From IMG/VR virus record IMGVR_UViG_3300042465_004912, positions 1 through 32,204 of that record: a stretch of 32,204 nucleotides of DNA; one strand, given 5' to 3'. This document shows positions 1-6,900 of the stretch, one piece after another. The notes below the pieces were generated by a model. The model was not told the origin of the DNA. It did not search any database and saw only the letters and a list, made by a program, of their open reading frames with translations. The stretch's first letter is position 1. Each line of letters opens with the position of its first letter. This DNA comes from a virus (Duplodnaviria > Caudoviricetes). A program made the translations under genes and the position numbers.

Positions 1-6
1 CCGCTG

Positions 7-3000
7 ATGAACTACAACCCAGCGGAGCCTACAAAAACGACTGCCGCATGGGCATCGTCTCGTGAAGGGGTAGCCGCGTTGTTGCGGGACATGGCTAAAA
101 CCAACGTCATTTGGAAGGACAAGAAGGACGGGCGGCACTATGCCTTGCTTGCTCCCAACGCAATGGATCAGGAGACCCACAAGTCTAACGTCAACGCTGG
201 CATAGTTTTCGTGGCGGACATGGCGCACGCTGTTGAAACAGGGGTAATCAACAAGGCAGACAACGAAAAGCTGTTGGCCAACATCCGTTCCAAAAACAGT
301 ACTTTGGCCGCTTTCCCTGGCTTTACTGACCCCGGCGCACTTGGGTTCTTTGGCAACTTGAGCTTTGAAAACCGGGTAGTGGTTTTTGATGCTATGCAAA
401 CCGCTGAAGCCCTTGCCGCTGGGGCACCAGTAAGTGACGTAATGCTACTGACTACACGGGACCAATCCTATCATGGGGTGGAACCCGGCGCGATGTTGTC
501 GATGTTGCTTATCGATATTGATCGAATGGCAACGCAAGTTGACGGAAACTGGGTGCTGCGTAATGACCTGAGTGCAGCCGACTTTAACGTCCCTCCTCAT
601 TTGTCTTACGACACCATCATTCCGGGGCGATTGATTGCACACTTTAGAACACCGATCCCGCTGGACGTTGCGATCCCTGCAATGATCGTTGGTTTCAAAA
701 TCGCATCTGACGTCAAGAACACGGCAAAGCGGAAAATGGATCCGCCAAAACCTCCGGGTAAAGTGGGTCGCCCCGGCTACCTGCTTACCAAGCTTCCAAA
801 AGGCATCGATGGTCAGTTGCTCACCAAAACCTTGATGACGGCAATTGAGTCCGTGCAGGATTTAGGTAAAATGGGCATTCACCCGCCAGCGATCCGTGCC
901 CTTACGGATGCGGTAGAGGGCACATGGTTGACAGTAAATACCGAAAAGGGCGCAGGGTTGAAGGAATTTCTTAAAGCACAGGCGCGATCTGAGGCGCGAA
1001 ACACGCTGCGGATTTACTCCCAAAAGGAAATGATCGAGCTAGTAGAAGCCGGGACCGTTGAACTGTATGCCCTTGGCAAAGAAGTCGCCGAACGAGACGT
1101 TGCCTTTGCAATTCACAAAATGCCGGACGGCACCAAGGAGCTGCGATCTGCAATTAACAACACCGGGGTGAAGGGCATGCTGCCTTTAATCGTGGCGCGG
1201 GCAATTGAAGCAGGGGCAAATCGACTGGAAGTCTATGCCGTACCAACCAAAGCCAAGCCAAAGGGAGTGCTGCCCACTGCGTTTGCAAAGCACGGCTGGG
1301 TTCAACTTGGCAAGCGCATCCCATACGATCGCAACAAGCTTGGAACAACCGAAGCCGAACGGGCGCACAAGGAAGCGGCCTTGAAGGATTTGTGGATGTC
1401 TCAAGGTTGGGATGGACAAAAGATGCCGGATCGGGTAATCATGTCCCATGGAGGAATCAGAACAGAAACTATTGATGACCCGACTGGACTCAGCTTGGCC
1501 GAACGAAAGACTGCGGGCGCTCGGTCCACTCCAGACAAAACTGCTGCACAAATTCGTGGGGCAGTCGGTGACGGAATACAAGAAAATGTCCCCACCGGAG
1601 GAAGTGCTGGCGGGCCTGCTGCTGGACGTGGAAGAGTCCTACCCCGAGGAACTGATACCACTGTCCAAACTCTTGAGTCCGCAAACCTGACCCCGGCCCA
1701 GCTTCGGACACTTGGGCTGACTGCCGCAAGGTACGAGGCATTGAAGGCAATTGCGGCACAGGGTGCCGGTTACAGCATCAGCACCCGGCAGAAGGCATCT
1801 CTGAAGATGCAGATGACACGGGATGAAATCCTTGATGCCATCGACAAGAGCAAGGACTGGAAGGACTTCTACACCACTTACCAATACCTGCTGGACGAGT
1901 ACTTTGGGGAAGACTCAGCGGCGTTTCAGTCGATCCTGTCAATCACTTCGCAGGCTACTTCAGTCAAAGCCAACGTCGCCATTGCCCTGCGGATGTATGG
2001 GTACTGGAAGCGGGGCGAAGAGTTTGATGGCAAGAAGCGAGGGGAAGCAGAATCCGGTGCGCTGTCTGGGGTTCTGAAAAATCTGGAGCGGTGGCGTGAC
2101 GACGTTGCGCTGTCCGGGCGGAAGATTTCCAACTACCAAGCGGCCAACGAAGGCGGGGAAGGTGCGACCGAGAAGGTGGTGGTTGACCGGCACATTGCCA
2201 ACATGCTGTTTGGCACCAAGACCCCAACGGACGCGCAATACACCGAGGCTGAAAAGGTCTTGACCGAGATCGCCCAGAGCATAGGGTGGGAACCGCGACA
2301 GGTCCAAGCCGCCCTCTGGGCAGCATCCATTCGCAAATCAGGAACCGAACCAGCATCATATGACCAATACCTCAAAACCCTCCGAGAACGAGGAACCATC
2401 TACGAGAGAACTGGAGCAACTCCTGGAGGAGGTGGAATCTTTGCAGCAGGAGTCGAGCGACCAATTCGGCGACCTGTTACTCGCCGAGGTGCTCGAAAAG
2501 CTGGGACAGAACAGTACAGCATCAGCACCCGAGGAGGAGCAGGAGCAGGTGACGGAGGAGGAGGAATTGGAACTAGGGCAACTGCGCCTTTACGAGGTAC
2601 GCCATCGGTCCCAGGCTTTAACGGGCCGGATTCCCGATTGGTTACCGTTGCCGAAGACTACGCCAAAAGCATTGGAATCGAGCTTCGACGCCAGTCCGAA
2701 TACGCCACAGTAGACGATGACAGGGGCAAGCGGATTGCAGATGCCTACGAGGCAATGCCACATGCCCCGGACGATCCTGCCGTAAAGGAAGCTTATGATA
2801 ACCTGATAAGGCAGACTACCGCACAGTACAACGCACTGGTAAATGCTGGCTATAAGTTCTGGTTCATTGACCCAAAAATCCCAGGCAACGAAGCTTACGC
2901 AAGCTCCCCATATAACGCACTAAGGGACATCAGGAACAACCAGCAGATGGGAGTATTTCCCACACTTGTTGGGTTTGGCTCCGGCGATGCTGCGGCGGAT

Positions 3001-6000
3001 ACTAACCGGATGCTTGAAGAGACCGGCATTGAGTGGCCAAGGGGTGGCCTAAACGGACGCATGGGCAAGGTGCTTGCCAACGACTTATTCCGAGCGGTGC
3101 ATGATGCCTTTGGTCACGGTCTGGAAGGCGCTGGCTTCCGTGGCCGAGGAGAGGAGAACGCATGGCAGGCGCACGTTCGCCTGTTCACTGGCAGTGCGGT
3201 GGGGGCAATTACTAGCGAGACCCGTGGGCAGAACAGTTGGCTTAATTATGGCCCGTACGGGCAGGCCAACCGGAAAGCATCAACTGCGGACACCGTGTTC
3301 GCTGAACAGAAAACCGGACTGATGCCGGAGTGGACATGGACCGAGGGGAAGGTTGGCGACATGCCCGAAGAAGCACCGGCAGAAGACGGGTACAGCATTG
3401 CAAGCAGCAGCAGGCTGGAACGGATCATGGCACGGCTTGACGAAATCGCCATCGATCCCGAGGTGCGGTTTGACATGATGCAGCGGGCGAGTGCTGCACT
3501 TGCTAAAATGGCACGGGACATTGAGTTCCGTGATGATGTTGCTGTAGTTTTGAGCAGCGACGAAGCAGAGAAGTTCCAAGGGCAGCAGGCGAACGCTATG
3601 GCCCAGCTTATCGACCGATACAGTGCCGAGGAGCAGCAGAGGGTGCGCGACAACGAGGAAGCCATGAAGGCACTCAAGGCAGAGCATGAGGCGGCACTGC
3701 AAGACCTGAGCGTGAAAGCAGACATCGAGGCGGGAGGCGCACAGGAGGACGGCTGGACGACGGACCAGAAGGATGCGCTGAAGGTGCGGCAAAGGCTGGA
3801 GCAGACCACGCTCCAAGCACGGCAGCGTGCGGCGGTGGTGGCACTAGAGACTAAGCAACGCCGGGAAGGTGACGCGGCCAAGGCAAGCGAAGCGAAGGAA
3901 GTGGCACTGCTGAAAGAGAAGCAGGGGGCCGAGCGCAAGACCCGTGCAAAATCGGAAACAGAGCAGACCAAACGGCAGGACATGCTGGACGCTTTGTCCA
4001 CGTTGGACGCGATCCTGACCCCATTTCCTGCCGAGGTACGGACCAAAGTTGGAGGCTTTGTCTCGCTGGCTAAGCTGCGGACCAACGAGGCAATGGAAGC
4101 CTACCTCAAGGACCGGGTGGAGAAGCTGAACAACGCAGTCGAGAATTACCTTCGCAAAGACTACGTCGAGCAGATCAAAGACCTGATCAAAAAGGGCGAT
4201 GCCAAGCGGGCCACTGGCAAGAAACCTGGCGGCAAGTTGGGTGCAGAAGGGCACGTTCTGTTCGACGCCGTGAAGGCAGCGGCAGGCATGTCCGAAGAGG
4301 AGACCAACAAGGCGATCATGGCCCTTAGTGATGCCATTGAGAAGGCACGCATGGACGATCCTGACGCGGTGCCGGTGCTGGCTGAGAAGCTGCAAGCTGC
4401 GGTCATGTTTGGCGACCTGAACGGCAAGACCCGGACGGCACGGGACTTGGCCAACGCATTGACTTGGCTAAAAGAAAACTACGAACGGGAGCGGACCAAA
4501 TGGCGCATGGTCGAGGAAGCGCGACTTGCCGAAGTCGCACGGCTTTCGGAGTCAGGCGTAGACTCGCTTGATGGAGCTACCACCGACTCTGACCGGCTCA
4601 ACTCAACGGCTGAGCTTGGGGAGTTCCGCGCTGGATCGTCAGGATTCAGCGGTGCCATGCGGGCATTGTTTGGGAAGGACTCCGAGTTGTTCAAGCGGTG
4701 GACGGCAGCATCACGCAAAGCAATCATCCAACGGACCACTGAGTTCCAAGCACTTCAGAAAGACTGGCGCGACCTGAAGGACCGACTCTACGGCAAGGGC
4801 TGGAAGGGCGATCGGAAGTTGTACGACGACATCGTCGAGCCTGTGGAGAAGTCCGGCGTGACAATTACGGACAAGATGAAGAAGTCCCGCGAGACGATCC
4901 CGGTCAATACTGCCGAGAACATCCTTGCCGGGAAGGCACCGGAGATTGCAGAACAATACACCGACGCAGAGAAGGCAGAGATGCGAGTAGCACTGGATGC
5001 AAACGTCCTTGAGAAGCGACCGAAGGACACGATCTCCCTGACTAGGATCAGCGGCAGCACGGTGGGCAGCGAGATCATGCTTTCCCAAGGGCAGGCGATG
5101 CACATCTCACTTATGTGGCGGCAGGCGCAGGGACGGGCACCAATGGAGGCGCACGGGTACACTGAGGAGACCATCAACCAAGTGGAGGCGTTTATGTCGC
5201 CCGAGGCTAAAGCCATCCGCGACTGGATCGCTTCCCGGTACACCGCCGAGTGGGGAGACCTGAATGCAGTGTTCGCCGGTATGTTTGGCGTGAACCTGCC
5301 GCAAATTGAGAACTACTCACCGCTGACGTTCTGGAGTCAGCAGCGCAAAGAGCTTGCCAATCCTGACCCGAGCGGTGGTCCGATCATGGCGCAGGGCGGA
5401 ATGAGCACCGGAATGCTTAAAGAGCGTGTTGAAAAGCACGGAGCAGAACCACGGATCGTAAATGCCGTGGACGTCTTCTTCGACCACATGCGGCAGGTAG
5501 CCCACTTCAAAGCGTTTGCTGAGCTTGCGCGGGAAATGCGGGGCGTGATGAGCAAACCGGAAATGCGGCGGGCACTTGCAGTGAAGCACGGAGAGAACGG
5601 CACAAGGTTGATGGACAAGTGGATGGATGCCATGGAACAGGGCGGATTGACCCAGAAGCCGGGATGGTTTGAAAGCCAACTGGCAAACATGGGCGGGGCG
5701 CGGGCCGTGGCAGTGCTGGCTTGGAACTTCAAATCCGCCTTTACCAACGTTCTAAATTTGCTTGGCACTGCCCGAGTTATGCCGCCGGACCAGTACGTCA
5801 AAGGGCTTTTCCGTCTCTTCAGTGGACGACTCAACTGGTGGGTTGGCAAAGGCTCTACGTTCCAAAGCAGCGAGATCATCCAACGCCGCATCAATAGCGG
5901 GATGAGTCCCGAAATGCAGGCAGGCATGTCACGCATTGCCAACATGCGACCTAGTATGCTCAAGGCGTTCATGGAAGGCGGCATGGCCCTTCACGCATAC

Positions 6001-6900
6001 AGTGACGCAATCTTCACCAGTGGTTCCGTTGCCATTGCCTACGATTTCCATCTACGGGAGTTCCTCAAGGATGGCATTGCCCCAGAGGAAGCTCAACGGA
6101 TGGCACTGGCAGCGACCGAGCAGTCGATTGCTGACGTCACCCAGCCAACGGAGTTCCTCGATAAGAGCACCGTGGAGATGGAGCGCAACGCCATGGCGCG
6201 GGCGATCTTTTCTTTCCAATCCGATCCTCGGCAGAAAATGGCACTTCAGATGGAAGCCTACGCTGAGAAGGATTGGGGGCGGCTTGTTAAACTTGTGATC
6301 GTTGACCATGTGGTTACCGGCTTGATCATGCAGACGATCACCAACGCATGGCGCGATGCCAACGACGACGACGATGCCGACGACGTTTTTGATCCCCTGC
6401 ACTGGCAGTTGTCTGACTACCTCATTGCTGCGGCAATCGGGCCATGGTCTGCGTTGCCAATGTTTGGACCTGCCATCGATGCCGTTGGCGCTGCCTTTAA
6501 GAGCGGTCCAGCAATCAACGAGAGCATCCTGACCTCTGCCGGATCGTGGGCAGGGCGCGGGGTGCGGATGGCTACCTCAGAGAAGGGCAAGGTTGAGCCT
6601 TACGAGATGACCTCGGACGTCATCCGAGGCACGGCAATTGGCACTGCGATCATGACCGGAGATGCCCGGTTTGCGGTAGTGGCACGGGTGGGATCGACTG
6701 CCTTCGACTTGCTCGACAACTACATTGAAACCGCTGAAGAAAGCATCTCGCACGAACTCAAGATGCGCCGACTGAAGGACAAGGAACTAAACCCTCCTGC
6801 CGAGAAGACTGCCGAGGAGGAAGCCCAAGCCAAGGTGGACAAGGCGGCAAAGAACCTGCGGGAACTGGAGCGACTACGCGAGGAGCAGAAGGGCAAGTAG
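7..6900 (+). CDS. Giant modular internal-virion/ejection (polyvalent) protein, probably 5'-truncated. Contains GNAT-like, glycosylase-like and HDxxGH modules, then a long helical C-terminal region
   Basis: 2297-aa ORF whose frame is also open at 1-6 (CCG CTG), so it probably starts upstream. Lies just before the tail fibre, where podovirus ejection proteins usually sit. Motifs: ARAIEAGANRLEVY..LPTAFAKHGW (GNAT-like); WKDFY..SITSQ..KISNY..VVVDRH..QVQAALW; RAVHDAFGH..GEENAW..ETRGQNSW. Coiled-coil/helical C-terminal half. Confidence 0.75.
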   Translation: MNYNPAEPTKTTAAWASSREGVAALLRDMAKTNVIWKDKKDGRHYALLAPNAMDQETHKSNVNAGIVFVADMAHAVETGVINKADNEKLLANIRSKNSTLAAFPGFTDPGALGFFGNLSFENRVVVFDAMQTAEALAAGAPVSDVMLLTTRDQSYHGVEPGAMLSMLLIDIDRMATQVDGNWVLRNDLSAADFNVPPHLSYDTIIPGRLIAHFRTPIPLDVAIPAMIVGFKIASDVKNTAKRKMDPPKPPGKVGRPGYLLTKLPKGIDGQLLTKTLMTAIESVQDLGKMGIHPPAIRALTDAVEGTWLTVNTEKGAGLKEFLKAQARSEARNTLRIYSQKEMIELVEAGTVELYALGKEVAERDVAFAIHKMPDGTKELRSAINNTGVKGMLPLIVARAIEAGANRLEVYAVPTKAKPKGVLPTAFAKHGWVQLGKRIPYDRNKLGTTEAERAHKEAALKDLWMSQGWDGQKMPDRVIMSHGGIRTETIDDPTGLSLAERKTAGARSTPDKTAAQIRGAVGDGIQENVPTGGSAGGPAAGRGRVLPRGTDTTVQTLESANLTPAQLRTLGLTAARYEALKAIAAQGAGYSISTRQKASLKMQMTRDEILDAIDKSKDWKDFYTTYQYLLDEYFGEDSAAFQSILSITSQATSVKANVAIALRMYGYWKRGEEFDGKKRGEAESGALSGVLKNLERWRDDVALSGRKISNYQAANEGGEGATEKVVVDRHIANMLFGTKTPTDAQYTEAEKVLTEIAQSIGWEPRQVQAALWAASIRKSGTEPASYDQYLKTLRERGTIYERTGATPGGGGIFAAGVERPIRRPVTRRGARKAGTEQYSISTRGGAGAGDGGGGIGTRATAPLRGTPSVPGFNGPDSRLVTVAEDYAKSIGIELRRQSEYATVDDDRGKRIADAYEAMPHAPDDPAVKEAYDNLIRQTTAQYNALVNAGYKFWFIDPKIPGNEAYASSPYNALRDIRNNQQMGVFPTLVGFGSGDAAADTNRMLEETGIEWPRGGLNGRMGKVLANDLFRAVHDAFGHGLEGAGFRGRGEENAWQAHVRLFTGSAVGAITSETRGQNSWLNYGPYGQANRKASTADTVFAEQKTGLMPEWTWTEGKVGDMPEEAPAEDGYSIASSSRLERIMARLDEIAIDPEVRFDMMQRASAALAKMARDIEFRDDVAVVLSSDEAEKFQGQQANAMAQLIDRYSAEEQQRVRDNEEAMKALKAEHEAALQDLSVKADIEAGGAQEDGWTTDQKDALKVRQRLEQTTLQARQRAAVVALETKQRREGDAAKASEAKEVALLKEKQGAERKTRAKSETEQTKRQDMLDALSTLDAILTPFPAEVRTKVGGFVSLAKLRTNEAMEAYLKDRVEKLNNAVENYLRKDYVEQIKDLIKKGDAKRATGKKPGGKLGAEGHVLFDAVKAAAGMSEEETNKAIMALSDAIEKARMDDPDAVPVLAEKLQAAVMFGDLNGKTRTARDLANALTWLKENYERERTKWRMVEEARLAEVARLSESGVDSLDGATTDSDRLNSTAELGEFRAGSSGFSGAMRALFGKDSELFKRWTAASRKAIIQRTTEFQALQKDWRDLKDRLYGKGWKGDRKLYDDIVEPVEKSGVTITDKMKKSRETIPVNTAENILAGKAPEIAEQYTDAEKAEMRVALDANVLEKRPKDTISLTRISGSTVGSEIMLSQGQAMHISLMWRQAQGRAPMEAHGYTEETINQVEAFMSPEAKAIRDWIASRYTAEWGDLNAVFAGMFGVNLPQIENYSPLTFWSQQRKELANPDPSGGPIMAQGGMSTGMLKERVEKHGAEPRIVNAVDVFFDHMRQVAHFKAFAELAREMRGVMSKPEMRRALAVKHGENGTRLMDKWMDAMEQGGLTQKPGWFESQLANMGGARAVAVLAWNFKSAFTNVLNLLGTARVMPPDQYVKGLFRLFSGRLNWWVGKGSTFQSSEIIQRRINSGMSPEMQAGMSRIANMRPSMLKAFMEGGMALHAYSDAIFTSGSVAIAYDFHLREFLKDGIAPEEAQRMALAATEQSIADVTQPTEFLDKSTVEMERNAMARAIFSFQSDPRQKMALQMEAYAEKDWGRLVKLVIVDHVVTGLIMQTITNAWRDANDDDDADDVFDPLHWQLSDYLIAAAIGPWSALPMFGPAIDAVGAAFKSGPAINESILTSAGSWAGRGVRMATSEKGKVEPYEMTSDVIRGTAIGTAIMTGDARFAVVARVGSTAFDLLDNYIETAEESISHELKMRRLKDKELNPPAEKTAEEEAQAKVDKAAKNLRELERLREEQKGK
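1448..1690 (+). CDS. Candidate nested gene (+1 frame) inside the giant protein, 80 aa, acidic and Leu-rich
   Basis: ATG falls exactly where the GNAT-like module ends (PDRVIMSH). Product looks helical (PEEVLAGLLLDVEESYPEEL), while the host frame over the same stretch becomes a Gly/Arg/Thr-rich linker. Confidence 0.5.
   Translation: MEESEQKLLMTRLDSAWPNERLRALGPLQTKLLHKFVGQSVTEYKKMSPPEEVLAGLLLDVEESYPEELIPLSKLLSPQT
1771..1787 (+). repeat. 17-bp direct repeat TACAGCATCAGCACCCG, copy 1 (encodes YSISTR)
   Basis: Identical copy at 2515-2531 and partial copy TACAGCAT at 3391-3398, all in frame. Confidence 0.9.
2360..2713 (+). CDS. Candidate nested gene (+1 frame) inside the giant protein, 117 aa, very acidic
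   Basis: Starts just after the QVQAALW end of module 2. Amphipathic acidic helices (RELEQLLEEVESLQQE, DLLLAEVLEKL). The host frame reads as GGA-rich Gly runs, the expected shadow of GAG/GAA codons in +1. Confidence 0.5.
   Translation: MTNTSKPSENEEPSTRELEQLLEEVESLQQESSDQFGDLLLAEVLEKLGQNSTASAPEEEQEQVTEEEELELGQLRLYEVRHRSQALTGRIPDWLPLPKTTPKALESSFDASPNTPQ
2515..2531 (+). repeat. 17-bp direct repeat TACAGCATCAGCACCCG, copy 2
   Basis: Exact match to 1771-1787. Confidence 0.9.

Follow-up and report, generated by a model that had tools for sequence, protein, structure and literature searches.

Organization of the Giant Gene and Its Nested Reading Frames

The window, that is the whole stretch of DNA analyzed here (32,204 nucleotides), is a podovirus-like phage contig of 32 kb that carries genes for terminase, head-tail connector, capsid, tail tube, tail fibre, endolysin, and RecT/YqaJ. 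Its first 6,900 nucleotides belong to a giant open reading frame, and the two ORFs that a preliminary description had placed within it, 1448–1690 (ORF1) and 2360–2713 (ORF2), are both present in the +1 frame of ORF 1..6900. The frame of the giant gene is referred to as the host frame. The following features were defined:

1..6900, + strand: gene for a giant polyvalent protein, predicted to be a virion protein; 2299 aa here, 5′-truncated in the contig
913..1464, + strand: GNAT-fold module in the host frame (AF2 model and structure comparison)
1436..1438, + strand: TAA in the +1 frame, four codons 5′ of the ORF1 ATG (sequence)
1448..1690, + strand, +1 frame: nested gene 1 (ORF1), 80 aa, product predicted to be a helical partner of the GNAT module
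1675..1760, + strand: helical tail motif, conserved in the host frame, with which the GNAT module closes behind the nested gene
1771..1785, + strand: YSIST module junction
1813..2400, + strand: DUF7178-like helix-hairpin-helix (HhH) module with OGG2-type Lys and Asp
2360..2509, + strand, +1 frame: conserved core of nested gene 2 (ORF2), an acidic, predicted helical peptide of ~50 aa
2510..2713, + strand: lineage-specific read-through extension of nested gene 2, over the junction into the next module
2515..2529, + strand: YSIST module junction
2580..3405, + strand: next module (HDAFGH motif, phrog_3170) and junction, with no nested gene behind it; internal control

In a near-identical relative (L119) the counterpart of the giant protein is 3422 aa long, and its gene follows those for tail tube A, tail tube B, and three unnamed ORFs; in the window the tail fibre gene lies downstream of the giant ORF. 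Internal virion proteins occupy this position in T7-like gene order, in agreement with the virion setting proposed in the preliminary description, and the giant protein is probably packaged in the virion. Because its relatives carry the Pfam domains ART-PolyVal, Kinase-PolyVal, PBECR5, LPD37/38, and zeta-toxin, the giant protein was grouped with the polyvalent proteins as characterized in the main-text passages of PMC5512222. YSI[S/A/T] motifs form the module borders of the giant protein, and modules are swapped at these motifs in its relatives (two modules are missing from L002, and in L007 another module stands ahead of DUF7178). Positions 1300–2800 are covered by a single contig of a relative, which differs by 21 substitutions and one in-frame insertion of 6 nt; the nested layout is therefore no assembly error.

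Related DNA came mostly from lake metagenomes, with no RNA dataset among the listed sources, and a GTDB scan returned one MAG contig, which was insufficient to fix the phage host. Searches by tblastn of 50,697 annotated phages gave zero matches for both window modules and for a distant GNAT homologue, and one match, Tunturi_3, for a distant DUF7178 query. Loose ends in lake runs at window positions 1718 and 1798 match relatives that diverge or swap modules there, and the variants therefore share the same lake samples. Elsewhere in the window, 17422–18054 matches phrog_3704, which is labeled ferredoxin.

The Two Enzyme-Like Modules

Based on the AF2 model (pTM 0.73), the first module has a GNAT fold (fold match with VIA Z 11.7, rmsd 3.2 over 143 residues), and the best 50 structure matches listed for it are all GNAT-fold proteins; acetyl transfer is only putative. 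The window module had zero matches in Pfam and NCBIfam, and a sequence comparison with the PDB gave nothing useful. Its family, which is without a Pfam name, comprises 184 representatives at E ≤ 0.001. Among the 140 representatives with enough sequence, the median G+R content was 0.30 in the 60 residues behind the module versus 0.14 within it, which suggests that the nested-gene arrangement extends across the GNAT family.

The strict pattern of the host-frame tail motif occurs in 74 out of 145 GNAT representatives, where it lies a median of 80 aa from the module. A total of 61 out of 145 GNAT-family proteins terminate within 110 aa past the module, and the tail helix, for which no Pfam family was found, is kept even where the giant protein terminates soon after the GNAT module. 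Since ORF1 is followed by this conserved helix of the host frame, the small gene sits within the GNAT module, and the read-through is under selection in its own right. Many relatives of the module are 700–900-aa proteins that end at the tail helix, and the module is often preceded by a shared domain of ~300 aa that belongs to no known family (window 1–870; P0143, P0160, P0184, and P0194).

The second module matches DUF7178 (PF23802) with E 4.5e-4 and 20.6 bits, under the 27-bit Pfam cut-off, whereas its relatives reach 27.2–54.9 bits; its Atlas score for DUF7178 is 0.97. The K, D, and H residues are invariant across 49 DUF7178-like module sequences, and the G-x-K...D-R-H pattern, which is shared with OGG2-type 8-oxoguanine glycosylases/HhH-GPD proteins, aligns to the catalytic-type Lys and Asp of the OGG2-type enzymes. 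The six best Foldseek matches are OGG2 (E 0.03–0.4, from a weak model with pTM 0.51), but the OGG-like matches are all weak (E 0.03–0.9, VIA Z ≤5.3). Since the matches also include further HhH enzymes and 8z2m, an HhH transferase of phage origin that modifies bases, the reaction is not fixed. Thus, of the two enzyme assignments made from the sequence earlier, GNAT is borne out at the level of fold, and the glycosylase-like assignment is retained as an HhH/OGG resemblance through weak matches. The Tunturi_3 match (L164:3902-4498) corresponds to gp111 of Tunturiibacter phage Tunturi_3 (PP885686.1), annotated “portal protein,” a DUF7178-like protein of 198 aa (profile E 1e-7) that stands alone and ends ahead of the module's last helix.

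Conservation of ORF1 and ORF2

The ORF1 start codon (1448) lies two codons beyond the PDRVIM motif of the GNAT module, which ends at nucleotide 1443, in agreement with the proposed start close to the last module motif. All 13 nonduplicate loci with a complete GNAT module carry a +1 ORF of 75–142 aa at the module end, a count that leaves out 10 further GNAT matches cut by the locus end. Members of at least 70 aa occur in 12/12 loci, compared with a mean of 3.9 and a maximum of 9 under a synonymous-recoding null, and six positions are invariant in the family (L, Q, L, L, P, and E). In the comparison with the 78%-identical L108, dN/dS is 0.16 in the +1 frame and 3.2 in the host frame. Overall, +1 identity exceeds host identity in 45 out of 66 pairs; for the four most distant loci it is not above host identity in the comparison with the window, but the +1 frame is favoured when these four are compared among themselves. 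A profile search returned 34 database proteins that gene callers have already annotated as separate genes. The start-context test is weak for ORF1 (9/12). By these comparisons ORF1 is a real, conserved, and selected gene. Its product is only mildly acidic (D+E 16%, K+R 11%), which corrects the preliminary description, where both peptides are called acidic.

The ORF2 start had likewise been placed within a few codons of a module motif, QVQAALW; the W of this motif ends at 2319 and the ATG follows 14 codons further, within the module's conserved last helix. A survey of 99 loci and the window (71 nonduplicate) revealed a +1 ATG ORF of at least 40 aa behind the DUF7178-like module in 62 out of 71 loci. 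Such an ORF was present in 49 out of 50 representatives, which were obtained by 90% clustering after removal of nine exception loci (L048–L051, L098, L102, L103, L105, and L086), seven of which form one clade with a fused extension on DUF7178. Controls gave 0/50 in the +2 frame and 7/49, 6/49, 10/50, and 9/50 at shifted anchors, and the synonymous-recoding null gave a mean of 12 and a maximum of 20 out of 50. ORF2 had been described as a gene of 117 aa, but it stops at 48 aa in the 74%-identical L053, and 45 out of 50 members of the family have at most 67 aa (median 54), so the remainder in the window is a local read-through.

Selection on ORF2 varies along its length. In the helix dN/dS is 0.49 in the +1 frame versus 0.83 in the host frame (13 independent pairs), whereas the first 12 codons are host-dominated (1.18 versus 0.37). 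The local +1 score is above that of the host frame in only 51% of pairs, and the frame advantage of ORF2 is thus modest. Taken together, the sequence comparisons indicate that ORF2 is a real, conserved gene of about 50 aa. The preliminary description had also noted an excess of GGA, CGA, and AGA codons in the host frame, and the counts confirm it: these three make up 13 of the 81 host codons that ORF1 overlaps and 26 of the 118 that ORF2 overlaps, whereas elsewhere in the giant gene they number 50 of 2100. Beneath ORF1 and the ORF2 helix, it is the host linker and not the small gene that is the weakly constrained frame. The view taken in that description, that both ORFs are under selection, is supported.

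ORF1 and ORF2 had zero matches in Pfam, PHROG, NCBIfam, and PADLOC. Atlas matches of ORF1 were generic eukaryotic helical fragments and were rejected because of low recognition. Three loci (L039, L062, and L080) have a host-frame stop within the nested ORF, which gives a partial overlap and not full nesting.

Start Sites of the Nested Genes

The ORF2 start overlaps an anchor Tyr codon of the host frame that reads TAT-G in 41 out of 49 cases, compared with TAT in 92 out of 214 other Tyr codons, and loci that do not use this Tyr have an ATG at another host codon (10 position classes, 11 tree changes). The clustering of start positions on the tree was not counted as co-evolution since the parts are physically linked. 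Upstream third positions are A in 50% of cases versus 26% after recoding, and the leader is less structured than recoded versions in 46/50 loci, compared with 24/50 and 31/50 at two upstream control offsets. These tests show, at the level of sequence, that the ORF2 start context is under selection.

Genes of the window are mostly without a Shine–Dalgarno (SD) site (median −0.1 kcal/mol), and an A-rich, unstructured ORF2 leader fits such a phage. The nested starts score only about −4.3 kcal/mol with a GGA far upstream; classical SD sites were considered as evidence for these starts and rejected given this weak score and the mostly SD-less genes. Across 6953–31459, most gene starts are without an SD site and are preceded by A/C-rich leaders, a hint that the host lineage is SD-poor.

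Linkage of the Nested Genes to Their Modules

When 164 redundant loci (1.17 Mb) were searched in six frames, the ORF1 profile gave 38 matches, all in the +1 frame directly behind a GNAT module, and the ORF2 profile gave 103, all in the +1 frame directly behind a DUF7178-like module; since the profiles were derived from these loci, the matches are a measure of specificity and not of discovery. According to hhalign (probability 0.15%), the two families are unrelated to each other. Module identity correlates with +1 identity at r = 0.68 and with host-linker identity at r = 0.59. Within these loci, a one-to-one linkage of each nested family with its own enzyme module is shown by sequence position. 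Both genes display the layout of toxin–immunity pairs, a small cognate gene directly behind an enzyme domain. Each small gene has its start between two YSI junctions, so a module swap would carry enzyme and partner along together.

A survey of 41 giant proteins, in which 26 segment families recur, used an automated rule for a coding-like +1 ORF and found such an ORF behind the DUF7178 segment family in 32/41 cases and behind two GNAT-containing families in 4/9 and 3/4 cases; for GNAT, inspecting the loci directly gave the 13 out of 13 noted above. One further family scored 1/3 and 22 families none, so that a regular coding-like +1 ORF occurs only behind the DUF7178 and GNAT-containing families among those surveyed. 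Structural coiled-coil and N-terminal segments had no nested partner in this survey, and the HDAFGH module was followed by a nested gene in 0/4 cases. A putative ART-PolyVal segment family, assigned by resemblance, had 0/7, and thus not every candidate effector has a partner.

Additional nested +1 ORFs were observed behind other modules. ORFs of 72–79 aa lie behind a zincin-like metallopeptidase module (L159:566-781, L162:9651-9887), with AAGGA or AGGG seven nucleotides upstream and conservation above that of the host frame; a likeness to free-standing small phage genes was considered and dropped since it had no family support. Single loci carry a 72-aa ORF directly behind a zeta-toxin module (L149:14781-14996; PF06414, 43 bits, above the cut-off) and a 77-aa ORF behind an LPD37 module (L154:8334-8564), and a 76-aa ORF follows a Dam-like methylase module (L047:368-595; DPPYY motif, weak PF02086). 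The four members of the fused-extension clade that were inspected with long flanks (L159–L162) contain a 60-aa +1 ORF behind the extension fused to DUF7178, with GGGAG upstream (L159:2114-2293 and L160–L162) and a frame advantage of about zero.

Possible Functions of the Nested Genes

We put a probability of roughly one half on the explanation that the nested genes are translated from their own starts and that their products would bind and silence the modules in the phage-producing cell. Ribosomes would initiate internally on the late mRNA at the nested ATGs, whose SD-poor, A-rich, and unstructured context would resemble the starts of the phage's ordinary genes. During synthesis and packaging of the giant protein, its acetyltransferase-fold or glycosylase-like domain would be kept inactive by the small protein. 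On ejection, the giant protein would enter the next cell, with the small partner left behind. In the host frame, the same DNA would encode a flexible Gly/Arg-rich spacer.

The case for inhibition draws on linkage, selectivity, and the precedent of MuF immunity ORFs and Rpn antitoxins; linkage alone fits an inhibitor, a chaperone, or an activator alike. In the portion of PMC5576092 that treats MuF polymorphic toxins, small immunity ORFs are described behind 89.4% of MuF toxin genes, and as in the giant gene a virion-carried enzyme domain is followed by a small ORF, there proposed as immunity; the MuF toxin is C-terminal and the small gene lies past its stop codon, whereas ORF1 and ORF2 lie inside a continuing ORF, once per module. 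RpnL/RpnS, as presented in part of PMC10327210, likewise represents a gene within a gene with an internal start, and RpnS blocks the enzyme of the long product. However, RpnS is read in frame, being the C-terminal domain itself, and serves host defence, whereas the partners considered here are phage-encoded and out of frame, with both ORFs in +1.

A stronger form of this reading had been advanced in the preliminary description, namely that toxin–immunity cassettes were captured in frame. It is unproven: no free-standing module-plus-partner operon was found among the few solo forms sampled, no ORF2 homologue lies behind the free-standing Tunturi_3 gp111 or in the solo loci L086 and L105, and for ORF1 the host frame resumes a conserved motif, which places the small gene within the module. 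More tentatively, polyvalent proteins may contain a general out-of-frame antidote layer, with each dangerous module carrying its inhibitor in the linker and armed by ejection.

It is unlikely that the nested proteins are instead module-specific chaperones or assembly adaptors that confer folding or packaging and ejection competence and have no antidote role. The one-to-one linkage fits this equally, partners also occur behind modules that are not obviously toxic (LPD37, methylase-like), and the conserved host-frame tail helix after ORF1 points to a multi-part assembly unit; against it, the coiled-coil and N-terminal structural segments and most modules are without a nested partner. Co-acting subunits or helpers, such as an activator, a substrate adaptor, or a protector of phage proteins or DNA, are unlikely. 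Intragenic products may be complementary, as with Cas11d within cas10d in the examples given in PMC10327210, and linkage and co-divergence (the above r values) would fit equally, but a need that arises after ejection could be met by an in-frame fusion, and a separate frame would be most sensible for a product that is left behind.

We regard it as improbable that the nested ORFs are untranslated shadows of the Gly/Arg-rich linker or decaying relics. The giant gene does contain eight +1 ATG ORFs of at least 40 aa, most by chance, but the null tests, dN/dS, and a bimodal codon score that sets ORF1/ORF2-type nested ORFs apart from shadow ORFs are all contrary, and hydrophobic motifs are kept down to about 30% identity. 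The six other +1 ORFs of the giant gene are unsupported; two were scored (1823: −0.61; 3074/3101: −0.37). Programmed +1 frameshifting, which would yield truncated proteins that end in the module and a helical tail, is very improbable: the shared strand, the +1 offset, and the position directly behind the module would suit it, as would the 29/50 ORF2 loci at which the +1 frame is open for more than 10 codons ahead of the ATG, but the ATG is selected and relocates when lost, and internal initiation is favoured because a +1 stop lies 2–7 codons before the ATG at 11/12 ORF1 loci (at most 10 codons before it at 21/50 ORF2 loci) and no slippery word shared among ORF1/ORF2 loci was found.

Relation to Known Systems

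In lambda, the small gene Rz1 lies wholly within Rz, in the +1 frame, and its product works with the host-frame product; these spanins are membrane and lipoprotein parts of the lysis machinery. ORF1 and ORF2 differ from Rz/Rz1 in their position behind enzyme modules, and since neither contains Cys, both are without a lipobox and neither would be a lipoprotein. The polyvalent proteins treated in the main-text passages of PMC5512222 share the giant multi-module virion protein, the GNAT, ART, kinase, zeta-toxin-like, and LPD domains, and the cassette-like recombination; nested partner genes are not described in these passages, and the words “overlap,” “linker,” and “glycosylase” each have 0 occurrences in the main text. 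Searches of open-access main texts turned up no account of partner genes nested in polyvalent proteins. Embedded genes and toxin–immunity pairs are already known; what is new are the two small-protein families and a directly testable hypothesis. Annotation pipelines miss nested genes when the giant ORF is intact, and two whole protein families have thereby been hidden.

If the nested proteins are inhibitors, they would explain how injected enzymes can be built without poisoning the phage's own factory cell, provide a simple sequence rule by which toxic modules could be recognized among the unknown polyvalent domains, and supply ready-made enzyme–inhibitor pairs testable in E. coli. Should the antidote layer be general, an effector could be stockpiled safely until ejection, and Gly/Arg-rich linkers would mark toxic uncharacterized modules and supply their inhibitors. 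Even as chaperones, they would represent a clear case of dual coding kept over deep divergence in a DNA phage. Tunturi_3 is a cultured phage, which makes its gp111 handy for assays.
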